The notes: generated from the sequence alone by a model not told the origin. A stretch of DNA of 64,000 bases from an uncultured Actinomycetes bacterium (GCA_963706025.1 CAVPLM010000005.1:1088001-1152000); one strand, 5' to 3'. Shown: positions 278 to 38,760, counted from the first letter of the stretch. A program made the numbers and translations.

Positions 278-1108
278 TCACTTGCTCAGCACGATCTCGC
301 CGAGAGACTGGTCTTTCGATGTCTTCGTCTTCACACTCTCGGCCTTGTATCCCGGAGCCGCGACCTTGACCGTGTACTCGGTGTTCTCCGCCAGCCCTTC
401 GAACTCGAAATCGCCGAAACCGTTGGTCTTGGTGCTCCGGCTCCCGCCGTTGCCGCTCAAGACCACTTCCACGTCCTTGGCTACCTCATCTATATCGCCG
501 TAGACGACGGTGCCGGCCACGAACTTCTTGGGCAGATGCCGGTAGGTGACCTTCTCTCCCATGACGTATTCGGGGCCCAGGACCTCGGTGGCCCCGGCGG
601 CCACCAGTCTGGCCACGGCACTGGCGGGGTCGTCCAGATCACCGAAGACGAGCGCGCCTGAGGGGCACGATTCCACGCAGCGGGGCTCAGGCTCGCCCGC
701 GTCTAGGAGATGGGCGCAGAAGGTGCACTTCTGGGCCAGCTGGAGCTCCTCGTTCCACTCGATTAGGCGATAGGGGCAGGTCTTGACCAGGCCCTTGTTG
801 CCCTTGGCCTTCTCGGGATCGATGAGGACGATGCCGTCCGCCCGGCGGTAGATGGCCCCGGACTGGTCCAGCTTGACGCAGGCGGCCTCGGCGCAGTGAC
901 TGCAGGTCACGGGGACGTGGTCCACCTTGACGTGCGGATACTGACCACGCTCGATCTCAAGAACTTTCATCCAGTTCATGCCGCTCATGGGCTGGGCGGC
1001 GGAGTAGCCGGGATACTCATTACCGGCGTATTCGTCGCGGCAGGTGAGGAAGCAGTTGTAGCACCCCACGCACTTGTCGACCTCGATCACCATTCCATAT
1101 CTGGTCAC
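278..1108 (-). CDS. 4Fe-4S beta subunit of a DMSO-reductase-family enzyme, pyrogallol transhydroxylase small-subunit type with C-terminal beta-sandwich domain
   Basis: Cys motifs CVGCYNC..C, CSHC...C, CPY, CTFC...CVESCP; extra C-terminal domain (TKTNGFGDFEFEGL); directly follows the Mo subunit. Confidence 0.85.
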   Translation of the reverse strand: MTRYGMVIEVDKCVGCYNCFLTCRDEYAGNEYPGYSAAQPMSGMNWMKVLEIERGQYPHVKVDHVPVTCSHCAEAACVKLDQSGAIYRRADGIVLIDPEKAKGNKGLVKTCPYRLIEWNEELQLAQKCTFCAHLLDAGEPEPRCVESCPSGALVFGDLDDPASAVARLVAAGATEVLGPEYVMGEKVTYRHLPKKFVAGTVVYGDIDEVAKDVEVVLSGNGGSRSTKTNGFGDFEFEGLAENTEYTVKVAAPGYKAESVKTKTSKDQSLGEIVLSK

Positions 1109-1112
1109 TTCG

Positions 1113-3644
1113 CTACGCCTCCCACTTCGAGACTTCTACGAGAAAGGACATGTTGGCTTCGCCGTATGCGTTCTTGCTGGTCATGCGCGAATGCGACAGC
1201 AGGTTCACGCACCCGCCTCGGTCGATTGACTCGGCCACGCCCGGCTCCAACGGATCGTACTTGGCCGCGGCCTGGTAGGAATGGAGCAGTCCCGGACGGC
1301 AGCGTTCGGTCACCAGAGCCACACCGAGCACGCGGGCGCGGTCGTTGTAGACCATGACGATGTCGCCGTCCTTGATGCCCCGCGCTTCCGCGTCGGCAGG
1401 GTTCATGCGCATGGGCCAGTAGGCGTACCCGTTTTTGACGATGCGGTGCTGCCGTATGTCGTTCAGCCACTCGATCTTGTCGTCCTGGTGGGTGTGGTAG
1501 GAGAACCTGGCGTGCGGCGTCATGATGATGAGGGGGTACTTCTTGGCCAGTTCCGACTCGTGCCCCTCATAGAGAGGGATGTAGCGCGGCATGGGCGGCC
1601 GTTCCTCGTCGTCGGGGAAGTACTCCTGGAGTCTCGTCCGCACGAACTCGATCTTGCCGCTCGGGGTAGCCAACTCGGTGGCTTTGTCGGTCCCCTGCAG
1701 CGGGTTGAAGCGGTCGGGGGTGTCGACCGGCCGACCCTCGTAGTACCACTTGTTGGAGACGGTGGGCTTGTAGTCCTCAGGTAGCGACGGCACCACGAAG
1801 TAGCCCTTTTCTTTAAACTCCTCGTAGGTTACGTGCTTGGGCAGGTCGGTGTAGTCGAAGACCTTCCGTATCCAATCCTCTTCCGAGTTGCCCTCGGTGT
1901 ACTCCTCCAGGAAGCCCAGGCGCTCGGCCAGTTCGCAGTAGATCTGGTAGTCGGGCTTGGATTCCCACAGAGGCTCGATGCACTTCTGCTGGTACATGAG
2001 GATGCGGTGGTTGCAGTTGACGTTGCCGTTGCCGTAACCACCTGGCTGGGCCCACTCGGAGATGTCTTGGTGCTCGAAGTTGGTACTTGCCGGCAGGATG
2101 ACATCGCCGAAGGTGGTCTCACTCTGCCAGTGGCAGTCCTGCATGACCACGAACTCCAGCTTGGGCGACTGGTACATCCGCACCCATTTGCTGGTGTCGG
2201 TCATAGTGGAGATGAAGGAGCCGCCATGGCGGTGGATCATCCGGATCTCGGCGCCGTTCGGACCGGGCTCGGGGTACTGCATGGGCTTGAACTGCTGCTC
2301 GGCATACTGCACGCAGAAGCCTTCGCCCAGCCACTCTATGTGGCCGTCCAGGATCGCTTCGGGCAGGAGAACACGGTAGACCTTCTGAGTGACCTGGTTA
2401 CGGTCCGGGAAGGTGGGCTGCTTGGCGACCAAGCCGAAGACGTCCCACCCCACGTCGGAATAGCCGGCGCTCTTGAAGCTCATGTCGAGCGGTGCGCCGT
2501 GAGCGGTACCGCCCCAGAGGTTGACCCCGTCCTTACCGATACCCGTCATGGCAGCCAGGTGGATCATAAGGCTGCACCACTCGGTGGCATACGAGTTGCG
2601 GCAGGCGCCGGCGGTGCCGTACTGGGTGCCGGTAGCGATCATGGTCTTCTTGGACGCCCACTGCTGAGCCACCGCCTTGATGGTGTGAGCGGGGATGTCA
2701 CAGATGGGGGCAGCCCACTCCGGAGACTTGGGGATACCATCGGTCTCGCCCAGGATGTAGGCCTTCCACTCGTCGAAGTGGACGGTGCGGTTTTCGATGA
2801 ACCAGTGGTCGTAGGTGTCATCTACGATCCACTGGTAGGCGATGGCCTGCGCCAAAGCGGCGTCGGTGCCGGGCCGCGGAGCCAGCCACTTGTCGGCCAT
2901 ATGCGCTGCGGTGGCGTTGCAGTACGGGTCGATGAAGATGCCCGTGACACCCAGTTCCCTGAGCCACTCCCTCCAGATGACGGTCTCCTGGCCGCCGTAG
3001 CCACCGGCAGACGTGTTGGGATCCACGGACCAGTAGATGACCTGCTCGGTGTGCTTCAGGGCCTCGGCCAGCATGTCGAAGGCGTCGCTCTGGCCGAATC
3101 TCCAATACCAACCCCAGGTGTGCACGCTGCCCCAGTGCCAGCCTTCCCAGGAATCGGGGTTATCCAGGAGCTGGGTGTAGCCCAGGATGTTGTAGAAGCG
3201 GGGCATGGGGCCCATCTTGTAGTAGAGGAGACCGTAGTTGTGGTGGGAGGACACAAAGGCCGTGATGGCCGCCTTCCCGTAGGTACCCTGGATGCGCTTG
3301 ATCTCGCTCGTGACGATGTCCAGTGCCTCGTCCCAGCTGATGCGCACGTATTCGTCCTTGCCCCTGAGCTCGGGATGCCGCTCGCCGTTGGGGTCGAAGT
3401 TCTTGCGCTTCATGGGATACTTGATGCGGTTCTCCGCATAGACGCGCATGCGCTCGGCTATGTTGAAGGAGTTGATGGTGGTCTTCCGGGGATCGGAGAA
3501 CTTCTTGCCCTTGGCCTCGATGGTCCAGTGGCCGCCGTCCTCTTCGGTCAGACGCAGGGGGCGCATGCGGGTGATGACCCCGTCCTTGACGGTGACCTTC
3601 ACCATGCCCCCGATGCAACAGTTGATGAATTCTTGCTCTGCCAT
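1113..3644 (-). CDS. Molybdopterin oxidoreductase alpha subunit, pyrogallol hydroxytransferase (AthL)-like, copy 2
   Basis: 843 aa; RIKYPMKR, NPDSWEGWHWG (putative Ser Mo ligand), PRPGTDAALA, GDVILPAST, and a C-terminal molydopterin-binding domain; no Tat signal and no N-terminal FeS motif. Confidence 0.85.
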   Translation of the reverse strand: MAEQEFINCCIGGMVKVTVKDGVITRMRPLRLTEEDGGHWTIEAKGKKFSDPRKTTINSFNIAERMRVYAENRIKYPMKRKNFDPNGERHPELRGKDEYVRISWDEALDIVTSEIKRIQGTYGKAAITAFVSSHHNYGLLYYKMGPMPRFYNILGYTQLLDNPDSWEGWHWGSVHTWGWYWRFGQSDAFDMLAEALKHTEQVIYWSVDPNTSAGGYGGQETVIWREWLRELGVTGIFIDPYCNATAAHMADKWLAPRPGTDAALAQAIAYQWIVDDTYDHWFIENRTVHFDEWKAYILGETDGIPKSPEWAAPICDIPAHTIKAVAQQWASKKTMIATGTQYGTAGACRNSYATEWCSLMIHLAAMTGIGKDGVNLWGGTAHGAPLDMSFKSAGYSDVGWDVFGLVAKQPTFPDRNQVTQKVYRVLLPEAILDGHIEWLGEGFCVQYAEQQFKPMQYPEPGPNGAEIRMIHRHGGSFISTMTDTSKWVRMYQSPKLEFVVMQDCHWQSETTFGDVILPASTNFEHQDISEWAQPGGYGNGNVNCNHRILMYQQKCIEPLWESKPDYQIYCELAERLGFLEEYTEGNSEEDWIRKVFDYTDLPKHVTYEEFKEKGYFVVPSLPEDYKPTVSNKWYYEGRPVDTPDRFNPLQGTDKATELATPSGKIEFVRTRLQEYFPDDEERPPMPRYIPLYEGHESELAKKYPLIIMTPHARFSYHTHQDDKIEWLNDIRQHRIVKNGYAYWPMRMNPADAEARGIKDGDIVMVYNDRARVLGVALVTERCRPGLLHSYQAAAKYDPLEPGVAESIDRGGCVNLLSHSRMTSKNAYGEANMSFLVEVSKWEA

Positions 3645-3648
3645 ACCT

Positions 3649-6214
3649 TTACGCCTCCCACTTTGCGATCTCGACCAGGCAGGAATTCTGGGCTTCGCCC
3701 GGGACGTTCTTTGAGACCAACTTGCTGGGGGTCAACAGGTTGACGCAGCCGCCCCTGTCGGGGCTGCCGGCCTTGCCCGGCTCCAGCGGATCGTACTTAG
3801 CCGCCGCTTCGTATGAGTGGACGGTCCCCGGCCTCACCCGTTCGGTCACCAAGGCGGCACAGATGACCGTGCCGCGGTCGTTGAAGACCTTCACCAAGTC
3901 GCCATGCTTGATGCCGCGCGCCTTGGCATCCTCCGGGTTGATGCGCACCGGCCAATAAGCGTAGCCGTCCACCTTGACCCGGTGCTGCGGTATGTCGTCC
4001 AGCCAGAAGCTCTTGTTGTCGTGATGGGTGTGATACGAGAACCGCGGATGCGGTGAGATCATCTGTAGTGGCCACTTCTCGACAAGACCCTTGGTGTCGT
4101 AGCCTTCCCAGCTGGGGATGTACCGGGCCATGGGCGGCCGCTCTTGGTCGTTCGGGTCGAAGGCCATGAGGGTCTGGGACACGAACTCCACCTTACCGCT
4201 GGGAGTGGCCAGGTTGGGCCCATTGAACGGCGGGTTCGGAGGATTCCTCTTCTCCGAGGGCACGTCAGCGTCGCGGCCCTCATAGAACCAGCGGAAAGAG
4301 ACCTTGGGCTCTTCATCATCGGGTCTACACGGCACCACGAAGTAGCCCTTCCTCTTGAACTCCTCGTAGGTGATGTACTTGGGCAGGTCGGACTTCTTGA
4401 AGACGATGCGGTTCCAGCCCTCGATATCGTGGCCTTCGGTGTACTCGTCCTTGAAGCCCAATCTCTCAGCCAGAAGCGTGTAGATCTCGTAATCGGGCTT
4501 GGACTCCCACAGCGGCTCGATGCACTTGTGCTGGTAGATGCAGATGCGGTGGTTGGCGTTGAAGTCGTTGAACCCGTAGCCGCCCGCTGCACCCCACTCT
4601 GAGAGGTCGGAGTGCTCGAAGTTGGTGCTGGCGGGCAGGATGACGTCGCCGAACTTGGTCTCGCTCTGCCAGTGGCAGTCCTGCATGACTACGAACTCGA
4701 GGTTGGGGTGCTGATACATCTGCACCCACCTGTTGGTCTCGCTCATGGTGCTGATGAACGAACCGCCGTGGCGGTGGATCATCTTGATGGGAGCGCCGTC
4801 GGGCCCTTCCTCCGGACAGGTGAAGCGATGGAACTGCTGCTCGATGTTCTGGCCGCAGAAGCCTTCGCCGATCCAGCTCACCGGGGGGTTCATGACGATC
4901 TCCGGCAGCAGAAGACGGTACGTCTTCTGAGTCACCGGGTTGCCGACAGGGAAGTACGACTTTTCCGCCACAGTCCCGAAGGCGTCCCAACCGTTGTCGG
5001 AGTAGCCGAACATGTGGAAGCCCATATCGAGGGGCGAACCTTTGCCGGTGCCTCCCCAGAAGTTGACCCCCGGCTTGCCGAAGCCCTGCATGGCCATGAG
5101 GTAGATGCACAGGCGGCACCACTCGGTGGCGTACGCCTGACGGCAGGCGCCGGCGGCTCCAAAGATGCTGGCCACGGCCAACATGGTCTTCTTGGCCGCC
5201 CACTCGCGCGCCAAAGCCGTGATGGTGTGAGCCGGGACGTCACAGATAGGCGCCGCCCACTGCGGGGTCTTGGGCGTTTTGTCCTCGCCCTGGCCCAGGA
5301 TGTGCTTCTTCCATTCGTCGAAGCCGTAGGTCCGGTTCTCGATGAAGAAGTGATCGTAGGTGTCATCGGTGAGCCACACGTACGCGACGGCCTCCGCCAG
5401 CGCAGCGTCGGTGCCCGGGCGCGGAGCGATCCACTTGTCGCCCATGGTGCTCATGGTGCAGTTGTTGTGGGGGTCGATGACCACGAACTGGATGCCCAGC
5501 TCCTTCATCCAGTGCCGCCAGATGAGGTTCTCTTGGCCGCTGTACATGTAGGAGGTGCTGTTCGGATCCACCGACCAGAAGATGATCTGCTCGGTGTGCT
5601 TGAGCGCATCCTGCAGCAACTCGGACTGCTCGCAATGACCGAGGCGCCACCAGTAGCCCCAGGCGTGCGTCGCCCCCCAGTGCCACCCCTCCCAGCTATC
5701 GGGGTTGTCGAGGCACATGCTGTAGCCCAGGATATTGAAGAAGCGGCCGAGAGGGCCGAGTTTGTAGTGCAGGAAGCCCCAGTTGTGGTGCGAGGAGGTC
5801 ATGGCGGTGATGGCCGCCCGGCCGTACGTTTCCCGGATGCGGGTGATCTCCCCCGCCACGAGGTCGAGGGCCTCATCCCAGGAGATGCGCACGTACTCGT
5901 CCTTGCCGCGAAGCTCCGGATGGCGGTCGCCGGCGGGGTCGAAGTTCTTGCGTCGCATCGGATACTGGATGCGATTGTTGTAGACACGCTGCCGCTCGGG
6001 CACTTCCCAGCGACTGCAGCGTGGTCTTGCGCGGTGGGGTGTATTTCTTCCCCCGCGCCTCGATGGTCCACGACGGAGCGTCAGACTCGTCGAAGATGAT
6101 GGGGCGCATCCGGGTGATGACGCCGTCCTTCACATAGACCCTGACGGGTCCACCGACCGTGCACTGTATGAACACCTGTTCATCTGACATCCCACTACTC
6201 TGGTCGAAGGACAT
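3649..6214 (-). CDS. Molybdopterin oxidoreductase alpha subunit, AthL-like, copy 1 (one apparent +1 frameshift near 6010)
   Basis: ORF 5873..6277 gives the N-terminus (QCTVGGPVRVYVKDGVITRMRP...PPRKTT) and ORF 3649..6003 the rest; removing one base near 6010 joins them; AAGGAG RBS before ATG 6214; NPDSWEGWHWG motif. Confidence 0.8.
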
Positions 6215-6291: not shown

Positions 6292-7485
6292 CTAGAGTTC
6301 GACAAACTGGATGAAGACCGGGTTCTGAACCGGGACTTCCGTCAGGACCTTCAGGCTTCCATCATTTGCGTCTACCGCATATGACCGGATCACATCCGCC
6401 GGGCGATCCGGGACGAGCAGGAATGCGCCGTCGGGCGAGAGCGTCATGCAGCGTGTTGCGTCTTTGGGATCCTCAGATTTGCTTAGCTCAACCCGTCCAG
6501 CCTTCTTGAGATGGCCATCCTCAGAGATGCTGAACCAGACGACGTCATCTTGTCCCCGGTTGTTCATATACACGAAACGGCCGTTCGGATGCACCTGCAA
6601 GGTGGCCGTCTCGTTGCGTCCCGTGAACCCGGAGAGCGTCGATTGCTTGTCGATGAAACTCAGCACCCCGCTGGAACTATCGAAGTCGAAGGACCAGAGT
6701 TCAGAAGAGAACTCGCACGTCATGAACATGCGGCCTTTCCTATCAAAGGCAGCATGCCTGGGACCGGTTCCCGCCGGGCACTGGTAAACAGAGGCGAGCG
6801 TCAGTCTTCTTCCTCCGATCCGGTAGACGTAGATCCGCTCCCCTGCCTTTTCGCACACCACCAGGAACTTGCCTGAGGGGTCGATCACGACGATGTGCGC
6901 GTGAGGACTGGCCTGCGCGTGGCCTCCGCCCTGCGGGGAATCGTTCGGATCCGTGCCATATCCGGTCAGTACATGCACGTCTTGAACTTCACCGATGGAA
7001 CCGTCCTCTTCAAGCCCGTACTGGACGACCGTCGAATCGTCATATTCGAACTTCTCCACCCACTTGCCATCAGCAATCTCGACCGCTTTAACCACGTGAT
7101 CGAAGAAGCCATGGTTGGCAGTGAAGAGGAGCTTCTTGTCTTCGTCAACGGTTATAGAGGCCGGCATTGCCCCCAAAGACGGCTGCCTGTTCAGAAAGGT
7201 CAACTGTCCGGACTGCGGATCCACCTTGAACGCTAGTACGCCCGAGGCCGGCTTCTTGGGTCCTCGTCCGTCGGTCTTCCTTTCGTCGACCGCATAGAGG
7301 ACCTTCGCTTCTGGTGCATAGGCGAGATATCCCGCCCTCTTCGGCATATCCTCCACACCGCCTGGAAAGGGCGTGATGCTGCTTCCATCCGCGCTGATTT
7401 CAAAGACCGAGATGCCGCCGCCCTCAAATCTATCAACGTGATTGCGTCCCACGTAAGCAATCAGCCGCTTCTTGTCCGTGCTCAC
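6292..7485 (-). CDS. Lactonase family beta-propeller (6-phosphogluconolactonase/cycloisomerase 2-like)
   Basis: SPHAHIVVIDPSGKF, GTGPRHAAF and VHPNGRFVY motifs. Confidence 0.85.
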   Translation of the reverse strand: MSTDKKRLIAYVGRNHVDRFEGGGISVFEISADGSSITPFPGGVEDMPKRAGYLAYAPEAKVLYAVDERKTDGRGPKKPASGVLAFKVDPQSGQLTFLNRQPSLGAMPASITVDEDKKLLFTANHGFFDHVVKAVEIADGKWVEKFEYDDSTVVQYGLEEDGSIGEVQDVHVLTGYGTDPNDSPQGGGHAQASPHAHIVVIDPSGKFLVVCEKAGERIYVYRIGGRRLTLASVYQCPAGTGPRHAAFDRKGRMFMTCEFSSELWSFDFDSSSGVLSFIDKQSTLSGFTGRNETATLQVHPNGRFVYMNNRGQDDVVWFSISEDGHLKKAGRVELSKSEDPKDATRCMTLSPDGAFLLVPDRPADVIRSYAVDANDGSLKVLTEVPVQNPVFIQFVEL

Positions 7486-7515: not shown

Positions 7516-8670
7516 TTACAGTTTTGGAGGCACGCCGGGAAGATCGGGGTACTTGGCCGCGACCTCGAGCACTCTCGGATCCTGCAGGCACATGAGGTAG
7601 CCGTTGTCGTAGACAAGCTTGTCGTTGACCTTGAGGGTGACGTTGCGGATGTCCGCGGTGATATGCGGATAGTAGTTGTAGTTCTCATTGGCCGGGGCCG
7701 AGCCGACGTGCCAGTGCACGTTCGAGTGGTGCGAGTGGTCGATTATCCGCTTGTAGATCGCGTGCGGGCACTGGGCATCCGTGACCTTCGCGTTCGGGTG
7801 GATGCCGAAGTGGAAGGTGTCGAACTTCCACATGCCGTCGCCGACCTTGCCTTCCATGACCTTCAGGAAGCGATTGATCGCGTCGGCTTCTTTGCCGCCC
7901 GAGATCTTGACCATGCGGCTGTCCTTGACGTCCACACGGACCGGTTCCTTCCAGGCCGGGGGGAGGCCCATGTAGCGCGACCACCAGGGGAGCATGCAGT
8001 CGAAGAAGAAGACGCCGTTGACGTCCTTACTGTTGATCGGAGGGTGGACCCACTCGGGGTAAGGGATGTAGTGGCTCGCATCCCTGCGCCAGGAGTTGTA
8101 GGGCATGCCGGGGATGCCGGGGCGCTGCACCGGATCGAGCGAGTAGCCTTCGAGCTCCGTGCCGTTGGGATCGGTCATCACCCATTTGGCCTCATGGGTC
8201 ATGAAGGGATCGGAGCTTACGTGGCGGACCATGACCACGAGCTCATGCGGCGTCTGGGCCCACTCGCTCATCAGGAGCGAGGCGGTGACGGGGAACATGC
8301 GCACGTACCAGGTCTTGACCTCTTCGATGTACTTGCGGAACTCGGCGACCTCTTCGATGGCCAGGTCGAGGGAGGTATTGATGAACAGATCGGCGTTGGC
8401 GATGGCGCCCTTGACGACGGGCGGCAGGCGCCACTCGTGGGCCTTCATCACCTCGTCGATCCAGAGGATCGAGCAGTTGGCGCCGCGCGACTGGACCACA
8501 GCCTGGGTCCAGCTGATGGCCTGCTCATCGACCAGGTTGTCACTGCCATAGAGGCCGTCGCTGTGGGCCAGGATGACGACCTCCATGCCCGGCTTGACCT
8601 GGGCGTCGTGGTCCACCATCTGGATGAGCGAGTTCAGCGCTGCCTTGGGAATGCCCAATTGATGACTCAC
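7516..8670 (-). CDS. M29/aminopeptidase T-like fold metalloprotein (NicX-like), function unknown
   Basis: 384 aa; TDPNGTELEG, FHFGIHPNAK, HWHVGS and C-terminal KLVYDNGYL resemble the thermophilic metalloprotease/NicX fold. Confidence 0.5.
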   Translation of the reverse strand: MSHQLGIPKAALNSLIQMVDHDAQVKPGMEVVILAHSDGLYGSDNLVDEQAISWTQAVVQSRGANCSILWIDEVMKAHEWRLPPVVKGAIANADLFINTSLDLAIEEVAEFRKYIEEVKTWYVRMFPVTASLLMSEWAQTPHELVVMVRHVSSDPFMTHEAKWVMTDPNGTELEGYSLDPVQRPGIPGMPYNSWRRDASHYIPYPEWVHPPINSKDVNGVFFFDCMLPWWSRYMGLPPAWKEPVRVDVKDSRMVKISGGKEADAINRFLKVMEGKVGDGMWKFDTFHFGIHPNAKVTDAQCPHAIYKRIIDHSHHSNVHWHVGSAPANENYNYYPHITADIRNVTLKVNDKLVYDNGYLMCLQDPRVLEVAAKYPDLPGVPPKL

Positions 8671-8698: not shown

Positions 8699-9211
8699 CT
8701 AGGTGTCTAAGCCCGCGCGACCGTTGGGGTCGAGCGGGAAATGCAGGTGCCACTCAGGGATCCCTAGATCCTCGAGCACCTTTCCTCTGAGTTTGAACAG
8801 GGTCGTCGCCAAACGCTCACGCTCGCTCTTGGTGAGCACCGAGAAGAGCCGCCGGTCGGTCTCGTTGTGGAGCGACTGCCTGAACACATCCAGGCCTTTT
8901 TCCGTCAGGCTGACCTCGATCCGCGACCGGCCGGCCGACTTCTCTCGCTTGATCAGCCCGTCTTTTTCCATGCGCTTGAGCATCTCAGTGACGGAGTTGA
9001 GCTCGCGGAAGAGATCCCGCGCGATCTCGACGGGCGTCGCCCGGCCCCCGTTATTCTGGATGATGAACAGCACAGCCCGTCGTTCGTTGCTGATACCGAA
9101 GCGCGCGTAGTCCCTCTCCCGCGCCCTGAGGATCGCGTCTTTCGTCTGGGCGATCAGCACCCACAGCATGAAGTACTCATCCGGGAGCTGCGTGTCTTCG
9201 GTAACGGGCAT
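8699..9211 (-). CDS. MarR family transcriptional regulator
   Basis: 170 aa; winged helix (SVTEMLKRMEKDGLIKR...VSLTEKG). Confidence 0.9.
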   Translation of the reverse strand: MPVTEDTQLPDEYFMLWVLIAQTKDAILRARERDYARFGISNERRAVLFIIQNNGGRATPVEIARDLFRELNSVTEMLKRMEKDGLIKREKSAGRSRIEVSLTEKGLDVFRQSLHNETDRRLFSVLTKSERERLATTLFKLRGKVLEDLGIPEWHLHFPLDPNGRAGLDT

Positions 9212-9212
9212 C

Positions 9213-10253
9213 TCATTCCCCTATCTTGAAGAGCCTCTGCGCATTCCCACTCAGAATAAGGGATTTGCTCTCTTCGGGAATGTCCAGGTTCTTGACGAAG
9301 TCGATACCGGTCACGAACCAATCCCGCCTGACCGGATATGAGCTGCCATACAGGATGTGGTCGGCCCCCAAGACCTCCACCGCGCACTCGAGTTGGGCCT
9401 TGCCCCACTGCATGGCGCCGGAGGTATCGTAGAAGATGTTCTTCTCGAGACGGTCCCATGCCGTATCGGCGCTGTCGAAGCGTTCCAACTCTTCCTTGGA
9501 CCTGCGAGAGCGGGGCGCCAGCATGTTGGAGTACGCAAAGAAGCCGCCGCCCAGCATGGTGTGGATGAGCTTGAGGTTGGGACACTCCTCAAACAGGTCG
9601 CTAAAGATCTCGCGGCCCACCCCGGTAGCCTGATCGACACAACGGCCGTATTGGCGGCGCTGGTTGGTGTACTTGATCAGTGAGGCATAGTCCACCGGCA
9701 GCGGGGTGTGGTGGACGACTACGGGGACATCGAGCTTGTTGAGTTCCCTGAAGTAGGGGCGAAACTCCGGCTCGTCCAGGTATAGGCTGCCGTAGTGGAC
9801 GGCCATCTGCACTCCCGAGAAGCCGAGTTTGTTCAAGCAGCGCTCGACCTCGGCAAGGCACTCGGGGGTGCCCCACGGGGGCGCCACGGCCAGAGTGCAG
9901 AACCGACCGGGATACTTGTTGATGTGCGCGTACAGCTTGTCGTTGACCTGCCTGCACTGTTCGAGCGAGAGCCACTCCTGCCAGCAAGGGACCCGCAGGA
10001 CGCCGATGCCCACTCCGGCGGCGTCCATGTCCTTGAGCTGGGTCTCGATGTCGTACTGATTCTCGGCGTAGTTGAGGTTCTCGTAACCCTGCGGCTTCTC
10101 CAAGACGATCTGCTGGAGGTCGGTGCCCGGCATGGGCTTGACGCAGCCGTACCACTCATCGTCGTTCGGGACACAACTGACGAAAGAGTCCCTCAGCGCC
10201 ACGTCCGTGAAAAGGTCTTCGGGAAGCCAATGCATATTGGCGTCTATGATCAT
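9213..10253 (-). CDS. Amidohydrolase_2 family protein (ACMSD / aromatic-acid decarboxylase-like)
   Basis: IIDANMHW, PVVVHH, PNLKLIH.LGGG, FYDTS and LGADHILYGSSYP motifs. Confidence 0.85.
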   Translation of the reverse strand: MIIDANMHWLPEDLFTDVALRDSFVSCVPNDDEWYGCVKPMPGTDLQQIVLEKPQGYENLNYAENQYDIETQLKDMDAAGVGIGVLRVPCWQEWLSLEQCRQVNDKLYAHINKYPGRFCTLAVAPPWGTPECLAEVERCLNKLGFSGVQMAVHYGSLYLDEPEFRPYFRELNKLDVPVVVHHTPLPVDYASLIKYTNQRRQYGRCVDQATGVGREIFSDLFEECPNLKLIHTMLGGGFFAYSNMLAPRSRRSKEELERFDSADTAWDRLEKNIFYDTSGAMQWGKAQLECAVEVLGADHILYGSSYPVRRDWFVTGIDFVKNLDIPEESKSLILSGNAQRLFKIGE

Positions 10254-11746: not shown

Positions 11747-12297
11747 TTCTTCACCGCCTCAGCCAGGGACCGAAGGAAGCGCATCACAAAGATGGGGATC
11801 ATGGTGAAGATCCCGAAGGCGGCCAGATACGTGAACGGGTAGATCTCGATGGGGACGTTGCGTGTCCGCTGGTTGGCCTCCTGGTAGGTCATGGCCAGCT
11901 TCACCAGTTGCCAGCACAGGATGCAGAAGATGGCTATGCCCAGGAGATAGATGATCGGCTGGACGATCAGTTGCACCCGCTTCGGCAGGTGCTTGGCCAC
12001 GATGTCGACCGTCATCTTCTCGTGCCGCCCCATGTGCTCGTAACCGATAACCAAGAAGGTGATGACCACCAGCCCCAACTGGGTGATCTCGGTCGACCCC
12101 TTGAGAGGCGCATTGAAGAAGCGGCGCCCGATGATCGACCAGATCATCGCCAGGACCATCGCTCCCAGGGCCGCGGCTCCGATGTACGCAAGCCACTTGT
12201 AGATAGGCTTGATGAAGGCCTCGACGGAGTCCGCGGCCTTGGCAAGGCCGGTGGTCGGCACTGCGGCCGCGCCCTCGGGTTGCCCGTGTTCACTCAT
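11743..12297 (-). CDS. dctQ: TRAP transporter small permease
   Basis: 184 aa with 4 TM segments; located between dctP and dctM, 4-bp overlap with dctM. Confidence 0.9.
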   Translation of the reverse strand: MSEHGQPEGAAAVPTTGLAKAADSVEAFIKPIYKWLAYIGAAALGAMVLAMIWSIIGRRFFNAPLKGSTEITQLGLVVITFLVIGYEHMGRHEKMTVDIVAKHLPKRVQLIVQPIIYLLGIAIFCILCWQLVKLAMTYQEANQRTRNVPIEIYPFTYLAAFGIFTMIPIFVMRFLRSLAEAVKK

Positions 12298-13816: not shown

Positions 13817-13960
13817 CTCACTCCCCCTCTGCAATATCCGATAGCTCGTCTTCATGCAACTGTCTTTTGGGACCCGACAAAGCCGTGTGCCTGTGTTTCC
13901 ACCCCCTCCATTCTCGACCCATCGCCCACCGAGTTCTGTTTCGAACCAAGTGAGCGGCTG

Positions 13961-14033: not shown

Positions 14034-14136
14034 TCACTTTAGTTGGTAAACTTTGGTCGAGGCTAAGGTTGAGTGGAGCAGGGGGTCCCTTTCTGAGGAT
14101 GGTAGACGTGTCTCTTGCCGAGGCATCGTGACGGCC

Positions 14137-15279
14137 ATGTTCGGTGCGGTGCCCGTCAGACTATGGTCTATGACCACTCGGGTCGCGAGGAACCCACACT
14201 TCTGGGTGGTGGTCGTTCTCTCCGCCATACTTCTATTCATATACCAGGCTTGGCCTTGGCCCGAGTCACGGTTCAACAGCGGAGTGTGGCGTTCTTTCTC
14301 CTGGTTGTCCGCGCTCGAATCCCTCGTCATAGAGGTGGAGCTCAAGTACCATCTGTTCGGCGCGTTGTTCTTGATACCGATCCTATATGGTTCGCTGACC
14401 CTGTCGTGGACCGGAGGCATCTTCGCCTGGTGTTTGGCGCTGATCTGGGTGTTGCCGACCGTTCTTTCGTGGTCGAGCGCCCCGCTGCTGCTCAACCTCA
14501 CCCTCCTCCTCTTGCCCGTGTTGCTCGTAGCCATCATCAGCGGGGAACGACGATGGCGCGAGAACAAAAGACGCTACTTCGCCGAGCGCGAACGAGAGCG
14601 ACAGGCGTACATCGCCAAGCTGGTCGAGACCGAAGAGATAGAACGTAGACGTATCGCCCAGGAACTCCACGACGAGACCCTCCAGACTCTTATGGTCATC
14701 GCGAACAAAGCGGATTCCCTCGCCCTGTCGGGAACCGATGAGAGGCAGGTCAGAGGCAATCTATGGATCAAGCAGGAAGTGCTTCAGACGATGGACGACC
14801 TGAGGCGACTGAGCATGAACCTGCGACCGAGCGTGTTGGACAACTTTGGCCTCGTCTCCGGGGTCAGATGGCTGATCAACAACAGCAACAGCCAGAACGG
14901 TTGCCATCTGGACGTCGCCGTGATCGGCGAGGAGCGGAAGATGTCGAGCCTCTCCGAAGTCACCGCGTTCCGGGTCGTCCAGGAGGCGATCAACAACATA
15001 CAGCGGCACGCGTACGCGAAGAGCGGTACCGTCAGTCTGGAGTTCGGAGACGACCGCCTGCTACTGCAGGTCAAGGACGACGGCGTGGGCTTTCGGCCAC
15101 CCGATAGACTTGCGGTTTACGTGGTCGAGAGCAAGCTGGGCATGATGGGGATGGAGCAGAGGGTACTTTCGGTCGGAGGTGAGATCAGCGTCGACTCCAG
15201 CCCCGGGGAAGGCACAAGAATCTGGGCCTCAGTCCCCTACACGGCCTCAGCCCAGGTCTTCCAGGGTGAGAATGCCTGA
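14137..15279 (+). CDS. Membrane sensor histidine kinase (HisKA_3, NarX/DesK-like)
   Basis: N-terminal TM helices; ERRRIAQELHDETLQ, QEAINN, DDGVGF, GEGTRI; start codon uncertain (14053/14137/14170). Confidence 0.9.
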   Translation: MFGAVPVRLWSMTTRVARNPHFWVVVVLSAILLFIYQAWPWPESRFNSGVWRSFSWLSALESLVIEVELKYHLFGALFLIPILYGSLTLSWTGGIFAWCLALIWVLPTVLSWSSAPLLLNLTLLLLPVLLVAIISGERRWRENKRRYFAERERERQAYIAKLVETEEIERRRIAQELHDETLQTLMVIANKADSLALSGTDERQVRGNLWIKQEVLQTMDDLRRLSMNLRPSVLDNFGLVSGVRWLINNSNSQNGCHLDVAVIGEERKMSSLSEVTAFRVVQEAINNIQRHAYAKSGTVSLEFGDDRLLLQVKDDGVGFRPPDRLAVYVVESKLGMMGMEQRVLSVGGEISVDSSPGEGTRIWASVPYTASAQVFQGENA

Positions 15280-15927
15280 CTTGAGACTGACGAAGATGGC
15301 CTCCGTCCGCGAGCGCACGTTCAGCTTCTGAAACACATCTACGAAGTAGCTTTTGACCGTGGCTTCACTGATCCCCAGATTGGCCCCTATCTCCTTGTTG
15401 GAGAGGCCCCTGGCCGCCAGAGTGAGAACCTCCATGCCCTTCGCCGAGAGCTTCTCCTGATCGACCTGCTTGATCGGCCTGACGACGTGCTGCAGCGCGT
15501 ACTTGAGGACCTCTTGGGACACCTCTGGGGACAGCACCATGTCGCCGTCCATGACGGCCCGAATGGTGTGGATCACCTCGGGACCGAAGATCGACTTGAC
15601 GAGGTACCCGCTGGCCCCGGCCTGCAGGATGCTGAAGATCGTCTCGACGTCGGTATGGACGGTGAGGATCAGCACCGCGGTGAGAGGGTCGGCTGCTTTG
15701 ATCCGCTTGGTGGCCTCGACTCCGTTCATGGTGGGCATGCTGATGTCCATGATGACGATGTCCGGGCGATGCTCCCCGGTCATGGTCACGGCCTCCTGGC
15801 CGTCACCGGCCTCACCGATGACGCGAAGATCCGGCTCCTTTTCCAGGATGTCGCGCAGAGCGCGGCGGACGAGGGGATGATCGTCCACCAGGAGGATCCG
15901 GGTCTCTTGCTGTTCAGCCGATTCCAC
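15247..15927 (-). CDS. NarL/LuxR-family response regulator
   Basis: LLVDDHPLVR, IMDISMP, GASGYLVK, GLSNKEIG...KLNVRSRTEA. Confidence 0.92.
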   Translation of the reverse strand: MESAEQQETRILLVDDHPLVRRALRDILEKEPDLRVIGEAGDGQEAVTMTGEHRPDIVIMDISMPTMNGVEATKRIKAADPLTAVLILTVHTDVETIFSILQAGASGYLVKSIFGPEVIHTIRAVMDGDMVLSPEVSQEVLKYALQHVVRPIKQVDQEKLSAKGMEVLTLAARGLSNKEIGANLGISEATVKSYFVDVFQKLNVRSRTEAIFVSLKSGILTLEDLG

Positions 15928-16172: not shown

Positions 16173-16475
16173 TTGCAGCACCACAAGCACCACCATAAAC
16201 ACCACCGCGACCATGACCACGGACGTGACCACGGACATGGCAACCACCCCCACGGCTCTCCGCACGAGCACGGTCACCACGATCGGGCATCGCATTCCTC
16301 TGGTGGGGCGGACTACTCACCCGGAGCCCAATGGCCCTCTGTTGCCTGCGAATCAAGCCCCGCCGGGCACGTGACGCCCTCTCCCGCAGACGCAGCCCTC
16401 GAGGGTTGCCCGAAGCGAGGCGGCTCGAGCGAGTGCCTGGGAGATTGCCGAACCTGTCCCTACCGGGGGCTCTAG
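16173..16475 (+). CDS. Small His-rich, Cys-tailed putative metal-binding protein (100 aa)
   Basis: GGAGG RBS then TTG at 16173; 18 His in the first 41 residues; C-terminal C-x8-C-x3-C-x2-CP. Confidence 0.5.
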   Translation: MQHHKHHHKHHRDHDHGRDHGHGNHPHGSPHEHGHHDRASHSSGGADYSPGAQWPSVACESSPAGHVTPSPADAALEGCPKRGGSSECLGDCRTCPYRGL

Positions 16476-16524
16476 ATCAGGACGACACCGGTCGAGCCCA
16501 CAAGCCGGGCGTGACTCGCCCCCG

Positions 16525-17340
16525 TCACCCCACCAGTTCGGGCGACAGTTTCAGCCGCTCCACCACCTCGTCGACGGTCGCCGGCTCGAGGTTCATCGAC
16601 CTCGCCACGCCCACGAGTTGCTCGACGAGCTGAGCGTTGGAGGTGGCCAGCTCCTTCGGCCTGACGTAGAGCGTGTCCTCGAGACCGGTGCGCGCGTTGC
16701 CGCCCATGGCCAGACCGATGGTGGTCAGCGGCAGGTTGGCCTTCGAGATGGCGATCACCTGCCAGCTGGTGTTCGGGGGCAACTCGCGGACGAGATAGGA
16801 GAGCAGCATGGGATCGGCCGGCATGCCGCCCTTGACACCCATGACGAACGAGACCTGCAGCGGTTCGGTGAGGAGGTCCCTCTTGAGGAGGTCCAGCATC
16901 AGGCCAAGGTGCCCGGTGTCGTAGATCTCGACCTCCGCCTTCACGCCCAGCTCGCGCATGCGCGCAGCCAGCTGAAGCATCTGCTTCGGCGGGTTCCGGA
17001 ACTCGATCTCGCCGATGGTCATGGTGGCGGGATTCAAGCTGGCCATGGCCGGCTTTGCCTCCACGATCTTCATGCGGTCCTCGTAGGGGAACCCGCCGCC
17101 AGTGGAGAGCTGCACGATACCTGGACACTTCTCGCGCACCAAATCCACCGTGCGCCGCGCCACGTCCAGGTCGGTGGTGAAATCGTCGTTGTCCCGCAGA
17201 TGGATGTGGATAACGGCGGCGCCGGCCTCGTAGGCTCCCTTGGCGCTTTCGGCGATCTCCTCCGGGGAGCCCGGCATCGCGGGGCTGTCCTTCTTGGTGG
17301 CGGCGGGGCCGGTGAGCGAGGCGGTGATGATCGGGTTCAT
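16525..17340 (-). CDS. Beta-keto acid cleavage enzyme (BKACE/DUF849, Kce-like)
   Basis: IITASLTG, EAGAAVIHIHLR, STGG, ASLN, ARTGLED motifs. Confidence 0.92.
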   Translation of the reverse strand: MNPIITASLTGPAATKKDSPAMPGSPEEIAESAKGAYEAGAAVIHIHLRDNDDFTTDLDVARRTVDLVREKCPGIVQLSTGGGFPYEDRMKIVEAKPAMASLNPATMTIGEIEFRNPPKQMLQLAARMRELGVKAEVEIYDTGHLGLMLDLLKRDLLTEPLQVSFVMGVKGGMPADPMLLSYLVRELPPNTSWQVIAISKANLPLTTIGLAMGGNARTGLEDTLYVRPKELATSNAQLVEQLVGVARSMNLEPATVDEVVERLKLSPELVG

Positions 17341-17510
17341 GGTGTGAGGCCTCCTAGCAGAGCGTTGTGCATGAGAACGTTGTAGACAGAGTGTTGCGCG
17401 TCGTGTCGATCAGTGGGTCGCGCAGCAGTATGCCGCCTCCGAGCCCACGCGTTCCGCGAAAGCGGTCTTTTCATAGGCGCGCGACCTTCTTCCCGGCCTG
17501 AGCGGGCCGC

Positions 17511-18268
17511 TCAGACCGCGGACAGTCCACCGTCGACGTAGATGATCTGCCCGGTCATGAAGTCCGATTCGTCCGACGCCAGCAGGATGATGGGACCGAA
17601 TAGGTCCTCCGGCGCGCCCAGGCGGGACAGCGGGATCTCCGCCGTCATCTTGGAGTAGATCTCCGGCTTGGAGAGGAATTCACGGGTCATGTCGGTGATG
17701 ACGAGCGCCGGCGCGATGGCGTTCACGTTGATGTTGTACTTGGCCCACTCCGCCGCCAAGGTCCGGGTCAGCTGGTCCACGCCGCCCTTGCTCGTGGCGT
17801 AGGCTGAACCACCGATCGAGGGGGCGACCCGTCCTCTCACCGAGGACATGTTGATGATCTTGCCGCGCTTCTGCTCGATCATGACTCTGCCCACAGCCTG
17901 GCACGCCAGGAACATACCGACGATATTGAACTTGACGACCCTCTCGAACTCCTCCGGAGGCATCTCCTCCGCCGAGAAGCGTGCGTTGGTACCGGCGATG
18001 TTGACGAAGGATGTCGATCTTGCCGAACTCCTTCATCGACCTGGTCGACCATGTCCTTCATCGCAGAGGCGCTGGTGACGTCGGCCGAGACGGCCAAGGC
18101 CTTGCGTCCCGTCCCTTCGATGTCCTTGACCACCGCCTCCAGGTGCCCCGGGTCGAAGTCGGCGGCGACCATGTCCGCGCCGCACTGTGCCAGACGGACG
18201 GAGATCGGTCGCCCCAATCCGCCGCCAGCCCCCGTTACGACCGCAACCTTGCCTGTCAGATCGAACAT
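17511..18268 (-). CDS. Short-chain dehydrogenase/reductase (two apparent +1 indels near 18005-18040)
   Basis: MFDLTGKVAVVTGAGGGLG; YATSK catalytic motif; NVNAIAP; TGQIIYVDGG; split over three frames. Confidence 0.85.
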
Positions 18269-18333
18269 CGGACCTCCTTGAGTTTCTGGAAAAACGACGG
18301 GCATCTTGTCGCCCTGCCTCAGTCGCGGCTCAC

Positions 18334-19285
18334 TCAGTCGCGGCTCATGAACAGCTTGAGTTGCGGCAGCAGCCGGCGATTCTTCTCTTCGAGGACTTCC
18401 GCGCGCGTCTTGCCGCTGTAGTCGTACCAGCCCTTGCCCGACTTGATCCCCAACTCGCCTTTGTTGACCTTCTCCACCAGGATCGGCGACGGTTCGGTCG
18501 CGTTGCTCAGGCCCTTGAACACCCGGCCCGATACCACCATGGCGATGTCGAGACCGATCATGTCCTCCACCTCCATGGGGCCCAGGCAGGCGAACCTGAA
18601 ACCGGTGCTGCTCTTGATGGCGATGTCCAGGTCCTCGGGGGTCACGATCCCTTCGTCGAGCAGGTAGTCGATCTCCCGCTCGATCGCGCCCATGATGCGG
18701 TTCACGATGAAGCCCGGCACCTCTTTGCGCACGAGCACGGTCTTCTTGCCCGAGGCCTCCATGAGGCGCTTGGTCTCCTCGAAAGCGGCATCAGAGGTCT
18801 CGCTGCCCCGGTGGATCTCGACCAAGGGGATGATGTGCCCGGGATTGAAGTAGTGGATGCCGATGATGTTATCGGGATTCGGCATCCCCTCGGCCAGCGA
18901 ATCGACCGTCAGGCTGCCGGTGTTGCTCCCGATGATCACATCCGGGTTGGCCGCCTGGATGAGCGCCCAAGAGAGCCCTCTTGTCGTCGAGGATCTCGCG
19001 GATCGTCTCCACCACGTAGCTGCATCCCTCGACCGCTTGGACCATGTCGGTGGTGACCATGCCCTCGATGCGGTCCATCACTTGGTCGACCGTCTCCTCG
19101 ATCAGGTCGAATTCGATGAACTGCTGGATGTTGTGGCGAAGCTGCTCGAGAGCCCGGGTCAGCGGCTCTTCACGGCGCGCCACGAGCCGTACGTCGAACC
19201 CGTTCTGTGCGAAGGTCTGAGCGATGCCTTCGCCCATCGTCCCCGTGCCCACGATCAGTATCTTCTGCGCGTTTCCTGTACTCAT
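18334..19285 (-). CDS. 3-hydroxyacyl-CoA dehydrogenase family protein (frameshift near 18965)
   Basis: ILIVGTGTMGEGIA, SNTGSL, HYFNPGH, VPGFIVNRI, GELGIKSGKGWYDY. Confidence 0.88.
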
Positions 19286-19304
19286 GCTTGACCTCCGGTC
19301 GCGC

Positions 19305-20160
19305 CTACTTCTTGTGCTGGGGCCGATCCCCCAGGAAGTCGGCAGCGATCTTGTCGAAATTGTGCCGAGTGGCCTGCAGCGCAACGGCGTACATCTCGGC
19401 CAGAACGTGGACGCGTTCATCGTCCTGCAGGGCGCGTTTCCACGGGCGCATCACGAGCTCATGGGTTAGGCGGCGGACGGCCCGGCCCTGACTTCATGAT
19501 GTGGTTGGCGATCTCGTAGGCGCGCGGGATGAGCTGGTCGTGCTCGACGATCTCGTTGATGAGACCCCAGTCCAGGGCGGTCTTGGCGTCGATCTTGGGC
19601 TCCATGTAGGCCATGTAGGCCGCCCGCTTCTGCCCGACACACACGCGGTAGGAGAAGTTCATGCCATCGCCGGGAACGATGTTGTGCGAGAAATGGGCAT
19701 CCGAGAAGTAGAAGTCGGGGACGCAGATGGCGATGTCCGCCATCAGGGCGAATTCGTAGTGCTGTCCGATCCCGTTGATGGCGGCGATGACGGGGACTTC
19801 GATGTCGTTGATGAAGTTCTCGACGAAGTTCATCGTGTCTGGAACGTTGCAGTTGTACTTGAGAGCAAGGTCGGTGGAGTCCTCGACTTCATCGAACGAG
19901 GCGGGGTCGCTCCTCTGGGTAATCCAGTAGGGGTCCGCGCAGGTCAGGATGATGATCTCGTTCTGCTTGTCGTGTCCGATGGCGGTCCACAGTTCGCCGT
20001 AAGCATTCTGGGTCTGGTAGCTCCAAACACAGGCCTCGCCTCTCCAGTGAAGACGACAGAGAAGAATGCCGTCCTCCGTGCGCTCCAGGTGGGCGAAATC
20101 CTTGAACCGTTCGCTGTATTCCTCTAACGTTTCCACGTGTACATAAGGCTGCATTGCCAC
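19305..20160 (-). CDS. Crotonase-fold protein of the 6-oxocamphor hydrolase (beta-diketone hydrolase) type (frameshift near 19485)
   Basis: IEVPVIAAING; DAHFSHNIVPGDG matches the His...IVPGDG pattern of 6-oxocamphor hydrolase; after a one-base correction the C-terminus reads RRLTHELVMRPWKR...QHKK* (stop 19305-19307). Confidence 0.8.
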
Positions 20161-20185
20161 GGTTGCTTCCTCCTCCTCTGGGTCT

Positions 20186-20425
20186 CTACATCTCGGCTAT
20201 CTTGTCGTCTTTGTATTCGATGTAATCGAAGTCATGCGCTGATTTGCTCAGGTTGAACGAGTACATCTCCGAGATCACCTGGGTGCGAAGGTACTTCTCG
20301 ACGTACTCACGCCAGGGTTTCACGCAAAGATGATGGGTCATGCGCCGGCAGGAGCGGGTCTTCTGCATGATGTTGCGAGCCAGTTCCCAGGACCTGTCCA
20401 TGATCTTGTCTCTCTCCACGATAAC
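20186..20425 (-). pseudogene. C-terminal remnant of a second crotonase paralog
   Basis: IVERDKIMDRSWELARNIMQKTRSCRRMTHHLCVKPWRE aligns with IVEHDQLIPRAYEIANHIMKSGRAVRRLTHELVMRPWKR of the next gene; the 5' ~200 codons are missing. Confidence 0.75.
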
Positions 20426-20448
20426 GGGTACGATGGATGATCCATTAA

Positions 20449-20510
20449 CTTCGTATCGGAGTTCGTGTACGAAGCCCAGCCAAGCTACCGCCTGGCGAGA
20501 CGAAAGTCAA
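20449..20510 (-). promoter_or_regulatory. Sigma70-type promoter plus operator copy 3
   Basis: Minus strand TTGACT (20510-20505)-N17-TAGCTT (20487-20482), then 7 nt, then CTTCGTATCGGAGTTCGTGTACGAAG (20449-20474); same geometry as copy 1. Confidence 0.75.
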
Positions 20511-36235: not shown

Positions 36236-36341
36236 CGGCGCCTCCTCCAAACCGCAGAAGGTGGGCTTGCCAATTGAACGATAATCTGACATTGTGACCC
36301 GCAACTATCCGGGCAACGGACCCTTCGGTGAGGTAGATCCA

Positions 36342-38740: not shown

Positions 38741-38760
38741 TCCTGGCCAAATGAGGAGAG

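Follow-up and report, generated by a model that had tools for sequence, protein, structure and literature searches.

Phloroglucinol is a funnel for the oxygen-free mineralisation of flavonoids, tannins and the phlorotannins of brown algae. To our knowledge, DPGC is the only enzyme known at present to open its ring, and annotation schemes look for DPGC. The available text of PMC10470551 describes an anaerobic phloroglucinol pathway in Clostridium scatologenes that consists of PGR, a short-chain dehydrogenase/reductase (SDR), DPGC, a Mn2+ enzyme of the cyclase family, TfD, a member of the 3-hydroxyacyl-CoA dehydrogenase (3HCDH) family, and TAL, a BKACE. A preprint on SAR116 bacteria (10.64898/2026.07.17.739263), in the part available, describes cells that have a phloroglucinol reductase and no DPGC, and infers that they may do no more than detoxify. 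Here we describe a module of four same-direction genes on the minus strand (16525-20160) of a 64,000-nucleotide stretch of DNA from an uncultured Actinomycetes bacterium (GCA_963706025.1 CAVPLM010000005.1:1088001-1152000; hereafter the window). These genes encode a crotonase-fold protein resembling 6-oxocamphor hydrolase (OCH), which we call crotA, a 3HCDH-family dehydrogenase, an SDR and a BKACE, and Pfam matches on the minus strand confirmed all four family assignments of the initial annotation. We read the module as a parallel pathway that acts on phloroglucinol or a close analogue and in which the OCH-type crotA would stand in DPGC's place, and put the probability of this reading at about 0.5.

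The initial annotation had taken the motif DAHFSHNIVPGDG, encoded at 19663-19701 in crotA, as a mark of OCH-type enzymes, and this was borne out by the solved structures: the best relatives of crotA are OCH (1O8U, E 2.7e-29) and the Anabaena beta-diketone hydrolase (ABDH; 2J5G, E 1.2e-26), both of which feature H-x(4)-IVPGDG at the aligned place. A phmmer search returned the same two entries (E 4.4e-31 and 6.1e-28), with the next crotonase at 2.5e-21. When a predicted model of crotA (mean pLDDT 75.7) was searched with Foldseek, ranks 1-11 were all OCH or ABDH, with target-normalised TM-scores of 0.82-0.88, and ordinary crotonases trailed these by five orders of magnitude in E-value. Trp40, His122, His145, Asp154 and Glu244 of OCH are aligned and identical in crotA, where the Glu lies past a frameshift in the window. 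We take His122, His145/Asp154 and Glu244, plus Trp40, to be the catalytic set of OCH, and the title of entry 1SZO supports His122 as a functionally targeted residue. These positions are conserved in nearly all of the 111 full-length homologues among the 120 listed (Trp40, His122 and His145 in 111 each, Asp154 in 110 and Glu244 in 106).

Two ordinary hydratases of the same genome provide the counterpart to this pattern: their second catalytic Glu (PE motif) aligns with His both in crotA and in its paralogue crotB, and the first hydratase Glu position is retained in the two proteins. In fold, catalytic residues and loss of the hydratase catalytic pair, the features that we examined, crotA agrees with OCH and ABDH, and its predicted identity as an OCH-type, non-hydratase member of the crotonase superfamily is supported. 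The wider family comprises 506 proteins at E <= 1e-10 among the 863 candidates scored. All of its homologues carry the generic name 'enoyl-CoA hydratase/isomerase', and names in the ESM Atlas are equally generic. The family splits into an A type, which includes the crotA of the window, and a B type, which are ~48-50% identical to one another. A heteromer of crotA and crotB was considered; each of the two paralogues is found alone in many loci.

The strongest evidence for a functional link comes from the genes that accompany the crotonase. A scan of one genome per species yielded 80 loci encoding crotA or crotB, with Actinomycetota, Firmicutes and Proteobacteria among them; these loci were chosen via the crotonase itself and many come from kin, so the counts that follow are descriptive and overstate independence. 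Within 8 kb of the crotonase, a 3HCDH-family gene is found at 56 loci, an SDR at 58, a BKACE at 25 and an FAH-family gene at 24, while AthL-type transhydroxylase genes are found at 17. The full set of dehydrogenase, SDR and either BKACE or FAH hydrolase is encoded within this distance at 46 of the 80 loci, 37 of which have no cyclase-family gene there. When only the 54 loci flanked by 5 kb or more on each side are counted, these numbers are 36 and 27. We saw neither an acyl-CoA dehydrogenase nor a lysine-pathway gene recurring beside the crotonase. The crotA proteins of Firmicutes are 66-73% identical to that of the window, with 70% for Lachnospiraceae, and the neighbouring BKACE and dehydrogenase only 24-38%, and this pairing of a conserved crotA with non-orthologous partners indicates that the crotonase has been repeatedly combined with the same enzyme families. 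It is this repeated combination, as read from sequence comparison, that most strongly suggests that the crotonase and its partners work together.

The architecture of these clusters varies with lineage. In Actinomycetota, genes for transhydroxylase-like large and small subunits, IclR, (crotB), crotA, the dehydrogenase, SDR, a cupin, BKACE, an ADP-forming acyl-CoA synthetase, a two-component system and a TRAP transporter are grouped together. Lachnospiraceae clusters encode SDR, thiolase, BKACE, dehydrogenase, acyl kinase and crotA, and a phosphotransacylase is also present in Firmicutes crotonase clusters alongside the thiolase and acyl kinase, while Rhodospirillales clusters consist of LysR, crotB, SDR, dehydrogenase and FAH hydrolase. 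In marine alpha- and gammaproteobacteria, two cyclases, (a cupin), an SDR, a second dehydrogenase and crotB are found with a cupin, dehydrogenase, FAH hydrolase, SDR, sulfatases and a TonB receptor. Loci L060-L076 (for example L068 3771-18902 and L066 2-10822), which include the cultured Marinovum algicola, Alteromonas portus and Paraglaciecola chathamensis, feature crotB with sulfatases, a TonB-dependent receptor, a methyltransferase, tandem cyclases and FAH, and there are hints that the marine proteobacterial crotB clusters serve the catabolism of sulfated algal phenols. A small cupin (~113 amino acids, PF07883) accompanies the SDR in 30 of the 80 loci (for example L010 12673-13023, L064 9607-9951 and L079 18222-18563); the same cupin is also found in canonical cyclase clusters and has no role in the published pathway. 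Partnerless crotA copies (66-78% identical) in unconserved surroundings were also observed in Oscillospiraceae, Ruminococcus and Acidobacteriota (L024, L027, L028, L030-L032, L018, L019 and L036).

Genomes with the module were also searched for DPGC. Only one of six such Firmicutes genomes has a DPGC orthologue, and none was found in the five alphaproteobacterial genomes, in which more distant cyclase-family genes are present. One 3.1-Mb metagenome-assembled genome (MAG) of a Lachnospiraceae bacterium, which may be incomplete, gave no cyclase-family match at all.

The partner enzymes of the window were compared with characterised relatives. In an alignment with HBD of C. butyricum (4KUG/4KUE), the catalytic His138 and Asn188 are conserved in the dehydrogenase and two CoA contacts are lost: Lys56 is replaced by Leu, and Asn221 by Gly with an insert of three residues. 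The translation of the window itself agrees at these positions. The available text of PMC10470551 reports loss of the same two contacts for the free-acid dehydrogenase TfD, which supports the earlier idea that the dehydrogenase of the module probably acts on a free 3-hydroxy acid. The dehydrogenase of locus L014 was considered as a CsTfD orthologue by residue numbering, as Ser122, His143 and Asn194 match exactly, but this spacing also fits several other types, so orthology is not assignable in this way.

The BKACE matches PF05853 at 284.6 bits over profile positions 3-274 of 274, and its best solved match is the lysine enzyme Kce (2Y7D, E 1.3e-50). The His-x-His, Arg and Glu-Asp positions, presumably metal-binding or catalytic, are identical in the two proteins, while Glu14 of Kce, which binds the 5-amino group, is replaced by Ala. 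The NCBIfam Kce equivalog gave 251.4 bits for a 90%-identical orthologue (L010) against a cut-off of 382, and the BKACE does not belong to the lysine-pathway equivalog. NCBIfam holds no equivalog for PGR, DPGC, TfD or TAL, and the cyclases have no NCBIfam match of any kind, so placement in a named family failed. The SDR reads ...ADMVAADFDPGH after beta-2 (VAADFD). The Asp that had led the initial annotation to caution that NADH might be used is therefore correctly read for the window SDR, while orthologues of 78-84% identity carry VDDL (L010, L008 and L013) or TSRD (L064 and L083). Among solved or named proteins, gluconate-5-dehydrogenase and polyol dehydrogenases are nearest to the SDR. With three of the cluster SDRs as queries, the solved structures yielded no entry under the name phloroglucinol reductase, and the best 60 solved SDRs include none named PGR; 5G4K/5G4L had been suspected to be one, which the available text of PMC10470551 did not confirm, and the idea was dropped.

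The mechanism class is likely, and the steps that we infer would run as follows. The SDR would reduce a benzenetriol-type ring to a hydroxy-cyclohexane-1,3-dione, with NADH as the expected cofactor in this strain, and crotA would open the dione by retro-Claisen hydrolysis to a 3-hydroxy-5-oxo acid. The dehydrogenase would then oxidise this free acid to a 3,5-dioxo acid, which the BKACE may convert with acetyl-CoA to acetoacetate and an acyl-CoA.

In addition to the way in which the loci were chosen, a series of observations weighs against this assignment. Nine of the 54 well-flanked crotonase loci (Acidobacteriota, Oscillospiraceae and Ruminococcus) have no partner gene, and cyclase-family genes are present in crotB's cluster at 13 of the 80 loci, all of them in marine Proteobacteria except L010. 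The BKACE lies under every NCBIfam equivalog cut-off, including that for 3,5-dioxohexanoate:acetyl-CoA acetone transferase (160.7 bits against 430). Trp16 of CsTAL, as described in the available text of PMC10470551, is Trp in none of the 22 aligned cluster BKACEs: the residue is Ala in the window protein and its actinobacterial orthologues and Val, Ile or Gly in Firmicutes. A BKACE from another contig of the host assembly (C17) has Met there, and that of L103 has Gly. The TR(S/N) motif by which the same source recognises NADPH-dependent PGRs is not found in the window SDR. In the dehydrogenase, the substrate-binding Ser117 of HBD (Ser122 of TfD) is Gly in the window type (NTGS), with a Ser one residue further on, while the proteobacterial and all other cluster dehydrogenases have this Ser. 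The window has neither the small cupin gene nor the genes for ADP-forming acyl-CoA synthetase. In addition, TRAP transporters, one of which is encoded nearby, usually carry carboxylates, and phloroglucinol is not a carboxylate.

The host genome itself adds to these points. The window lies on a 1.2-Mb contig of a 3.66-Mb assembly (30 contigs, 92% complete, 7% contaminated) whose nearest public relatives are MAGs of uncultured Actinomycetota. Contig C17 (20979-25129; L090 3979-8129) encodes a second cluster, BKACE-cupin-SDR-dehydrogenase-cyclase, followed by five transhydroxylase-like genes, and its cyclase has Trp20 and Tyr22, the residues that PMC10470551, in the text available, singles out in CsDPGC. 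Orthologues of this cyclase (66-83% identity) were found in four of the 300 Clostridia genomes searched, and the three sites inspected all lie in cupin/SDR/dehydrogenase/thiolase/BKACE/cyclase clusters, from which we infer that the C17 cluster is probably of the canonical DPGC type. The window genes are paralogues of those on C17, with identities of 47% for the SDR, for which this is the closest paralogue in the genome, 33% for the dehydrogenase and 37% for the BKACE. SDRs from clostridial DPGC clusters share 61% identity with the C17 type, against 48% with the window type. Across the 61 genomes of the host order, crot genes are present in 22 and the canonical cyclase (at least 67% identity) in 39, and the cyclase accompanies crot genes in all 22 genomes that bear them, in one case as no more than a fragment at a contig end. 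In this order, the crotonase module is therefore an addition and not a replacement, and the co-occurrence suggests either that the two routes are redundant or that the module has another, related substrate.

These results divide the pathway proposed in the initial annotation. CoA-independent ring cleavage by the module is well supported by context, while dihydrophloroglucinol as its substrate is not settled, given the DPGC-type cluster on C17, the co-occurrence in all 22 genomes and the paralogous partner genes. Because the genome also holds this canonical cluster, a close analogue is more likely to be the substrate in the host than phloroglucinol, and candidates include other hydroxylated or substituted benzenetriols or benzenetetrols.

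Further gene sets of this kind were observed in the genome. Genes for an ABC transporter and IclR adjoin a third dehydrogenase-BKACE-SDR set (C3:639870-642587; L091 5870-8587), and a tandem pair of cyclase-family genes (C3:342704-344308; L105) resembles the pairs that head two Lachnospiraceae clusters with the order cyclase-cyclase-SDR-BKACE-dehydrogenase-thiolase (L103 and L104). The genome also encodes more than 25 paralogues of the transhydroxylase large subunit (on C1, C3, C5, C8, C14, C17, C19, C26 and C29), many with adjacent small subunits, which suggests many different hydroxyl-shuffling specificities. Together with the island around the module, this content fits an anaerobe specialised on polyhydroxybenzenes.

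The rival that survives best holds that the module has the proposed function but is dead and decaying in the host strain, its job being covered by the DPGC cluster on C17. We regard this as unlikely. The initial annotation implied frameshifts, and four single-base insertions (+1) can be read in the window DNA against orthologues, breaking crotA (~19485), the dehydrogenase (~18961) and the SDR (~18037 and ~18005). The crotA frameshift splits residues 1-225 from the C-terminal 60, which hold the equivalent of OCH Glu244; a tblastn search with protein P0001 matched residues 1-225 at 20160-19486 and residues 224-284 at 19490-19308, with 97% identity. Four insertions within 1.5 kb, in three adjacent genes, are denser than in the remainder of the window, where the map of open reading frames (ORFs) features only one other clear frameshift, in a transhydroxylase gene near 6003. 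Moreover, the neighbouring crotB is a remnant: residues 208-285 are matched at 70% identity, and the N-terminal ~207 residues are absent, with none found further upstream. An independent contig (run X2, record 13, 19306-20500) spans this remnant in the same arrangement, and the truncation is therefore genuine. The cupin and acyl-CoA synthetase genes missing from the window and the complete paralogous cluster on C17 also favour decay.

Against this, the frames outside the four insertions are clean, with no in-frame stops or deletions and the 97% protein identity to P0001, and the BKACE gene is intact. Logan contigs from four public runs of three studies, which are 90-99% alike, were mapped on 16400-20500, and position 18005 is left out in related contigs of all four runs. 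Contig pieces that cover only the SDR show two gaps in two of three cases and four in the third, those over the dehydrogenase site and over the crotA site show one gap each, and a long piece spanning the SDR and dehydrogenase sites shows three. The nine listed pieces that avoid both the four sites and the divergent non-coding stretch below 16525 show none. As indels in related contigs fall only at pieces with insertion sites, the frames of these relatives are open. Genes elsewhere are split in a similar manner, with transhydroxylase copies in two to four pieces on C5, C14 and C19 and a BKACE in four pieces in L006, and such breaks in the same assembly and in sister long-contig MAGs fit consensus errors. 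Overall, assembly error is the more likely origin of the four frameshifts, at odds of roughly two to one over decay. Where the window has the crotA-dehydrogenase spacer (19266-19306), three of the four runs carry a different stretch of 71 bases.

A less probable alternative, which we consider improbable overall, is that the crotonase acts as a C-C hydrolase without being the enzyme that opens the ring. In that case it would cleave an acyl-phloroglucinol, like phloretin hydrolase, or a linear beta-diketo acid, and the ring would be opened by a cyclase in trans or by the Amidohydro_2 protein encoded at 9213-10253, which by analogy could be another C-C hydrolase or a decarboxylase. The coexistence of cyclase-family genes in this genome, in all 22 crot-bearing genomes of the order and at 13 of the 80 loci is compatible with such a role, a steroid ring-A beta-diketone hydrolase is an Amidohydro_2 enzyme according to the available text of PMC11780191, and FAH-family hydrolases show that linear beta-diketo acids are hydrolysed within clusters of this kind. 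However, no cyclase lies within 8 kb in 37 of the 46 complete modules, and 10 of the 11 non-actinobacterial genomes examined have no DPGC orthologue. The LysR-crotB-SDR-dehydrogenase-FAH clusters already have a hydrolase for linear diketones and encode no other candidate for ring opening, and both solved relatives of crotA act on cyclic diones, according to their entry titles.

More doubtful still is a module for an alicyclic, non-aromatic compound (a cyclitol, hydroxycyclohexanone or terpenoid), in which an NAD-type SDR would oxidise a ring hydroxyl to give the 1,3-dione that the crotonase cleaves. The Asp typical of NAD(H) enzymes, the gluconate-5-dehydrogenase and polyol dehydrogenases nearest to the SDR, and the role of OCH itself in the catabolism of a terpenoid, camphor, are in keeping with this proposal, but transhydroxylase-like genes lie near the module at 17 of the 80 loci and exceed 25 in the host genome. 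In addition, the closest in-genome paralogue of the SDR belongs to the DPGC cluster (47%), its close orthologues carry the NADP-type TSR, and the Firmicutes versions with thiolase, acyl kinase and phosphotransacylase match the phloroglucinol cluster in the available text of PMC10470551. Finally, ordinary CoA-dependent genes, either a Crt/Hbd pair of butyrate metabolism or beta-oxidation or the dehydrogenase and BKACE of a carnitine or lysine pathway, are a highly improbable explanation: the public names of the crotonases, the thiolase, acyl kinase and phosphotransacylase of the Firmicutes clusters and the Kce match of the BKACE in both solved structures and NCBIfam would fit, but the crotonase has His for the second catalytic Glu of hydratases and conserves the OCH catalytic set, the dehydrogenase is without two CoA contacts, the BKACE is without Glu14 and scores 251 against the Kce cut-off of 382, carnitine dehydrogenase models score 122 against 592 and 95 against 414, and the recurrent neighbours include no acyl-CoA dehydrogenase or lysine-pathway gene.

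The module and its surroundings in the window are listed in Table 1. With the transhydroxylase-like Mo enzymes, the TRAP transporter and the two-component system, we read this region as an island for polyphenol fermentation in an anaerobic actinobacterium. The histidine kinase and response regulator genes converge and their 3' ends overlap by ~30 bases, an arrangement that is alike in L010. Genes for FolD, a NiFe hydrogenase large subunit and methylenetetrahydrofolate reductase are grouped at 35267-40226, as would fit an anaerobe whose lifestyle is possibly linked to H2 or C1 metabolism. An Rfam scan of the window matched no RNA family.

Table 1. Coordinates of the crotonase module and neighbouring genes in the window
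Feature	Coordinates	Strand	Remarks
Pyrogallol-phloroglucinol-transhydroxylase-like small subunit	278..1108	-	
Transhydroxylase-like large subunit, first	1113..3644	-	
Transhydroxylase-like large subunit, second	3649..6193	-	Frameshift near 6003-6008
Beta-propeller lactonase	6292..7485		
384-aa protein	7516..8670		No Pfam match
MarR	8699..9211		
Amidohydro_2 protein	9213..10253		
TRAP transporter	DctM 10433-11746, DctQ 11743-12297, DctP 12365-13855	-	Identical order in L010, L064
Histidine kinase (two-component system)	14053..15279	+	Follows BKACE gene, likewise in L010, L011, L013, L064
LuxR-type response regulator (two-component system)	15247..15927	-	Partner of kinase 14053-15279
BKACE	16525..17340	-	271 aa, intact; PF05853, E 9.7e-85
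Classical SDR	17511..18268	-	~251 aa; PF00106/PF13561; Asp after beta-2
3HCDH-family dehydrogenase, TfD-like	18334..19285	-	~316 aa; PF02737 + PF00725
crotA, OCH-like crotonase-fold putative C-C hydrolase	19305..20160	-	~284 aa read through; PF00378
crotB remnant, paralogous crotonase C-terminus	20186..20419	-	77-aa ORF; last ~63-78 residues

Looking beyond this host, we propose, tentatively and at less than even odds, that crotA and crotB form a widespread family of CoA-independent crotonase-fold ring hydrolases. In bacteria without DPGC, such as Lachnospiraceae of gut and rumen, marine alpha- and gammaproteobacteria and possibly SAR116, these would open the ring in phloroglucinol-type catabolism. 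Where both enzymes coexist, the module may handle a different benzenepolyol without isomerisation to phloroglucinol, for example reduced 1,2,3,5-tetrahydroxybenzene or a substituted dihydrophloroglucinol. A literature search, in which coverage of subscription journals was limited and an earlier sighting is possible, found nothing linking a crotonase- or OCH-type enzyme to phloroglucinol-type degradation. If the proposal is true, polyphenol-degrading capacity has been undercounted in sediments, peat, rumen, gut and ocean, and the rare CoA-independent crotonases, which are of biocatalytic interest for desymmetrising diketones, would gain a second physiological role. If the crotonase opens such rings, the three parallel SDR/dehydrogenase/BKACE modules in this one genome point to substrate-specific routes for different benzenepolyols.

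Among known systems, SRAH, a hydrolase of steroid ring A and an Amidohydro_2 enzyme, resembles the proposed route in that it opens a cyclic 1,3-dione by hydrolysis in an anaerobe, beside genes for Mo-enzymes, as described in the available text of PMC11780191; it differs in fold and substrate, and is relevant only via the Amidohydro_2 gene of the window. The carnitine dehydrogenase and BKACE pathway likewise pairs a 3HCDH-family free-acid dehydrogenase with a BKACE, but its models score far under their cut-offs here, no betaine or thioesterase genes are present, and a crotonase and an SDR would have no role in it. Kce shares with the window protein a full-length BKACE domain with its His-x-His, Arg and Glu-Asp positions, and is set apart by Glu14, by the Kce equivalog score and by the absence of lysine-fermentation genes near the module.

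The closest relatives of the crotonase itself are OCH from Rhodococcus sp. NCIMB 9784 (1O8U and 1SZO) and ABDH (2J5G and 2J5S), with which crotA shares the crotonase fold, ~28-30% identity and the five key residues, and like which it would be expected to carry out CoA-independent retro-Claisen cleavage of a cyclic 1,3-dione. In contrast to these enzymes, crotA is ~25 residues longer at the C-terminus. His45 of OCH is Gln in crotA and in 87 of the 111 homologues in all, and His in 24 crotB-like proteins, and the gene context is polyphenol-related in the window as opposed to camphor-related. The C. scatologenes pathway provides the best match to the module as a whole, in a comparison made via the residues described in the available text of PMC10470551. 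Three of its four families are present (SDR, a 3HCDH-family free-acid dehydrogenase and BKACE), the Lys56 and Asn221 contacts of HBD are lost, the BKACE is without the amino-binding Glu of Kce, thiolase, acyl kinase and phosphotransacylase are companions in the Firmicutes modules, and there is a link to pyrogallol and phloroglucinol. The window genes, 33-47% identical paralogues of the host's own DPGC-type cluster, differ from that pathway in the Asp of the SDR in place of TR(S/N), in the Ala of the BKACE in place of CsTAL Trp16 and, above all, in the candidate ring hydrolase, which is a crotonase-fold relative of OCH and not a metalloenzyme of the cyclase family.

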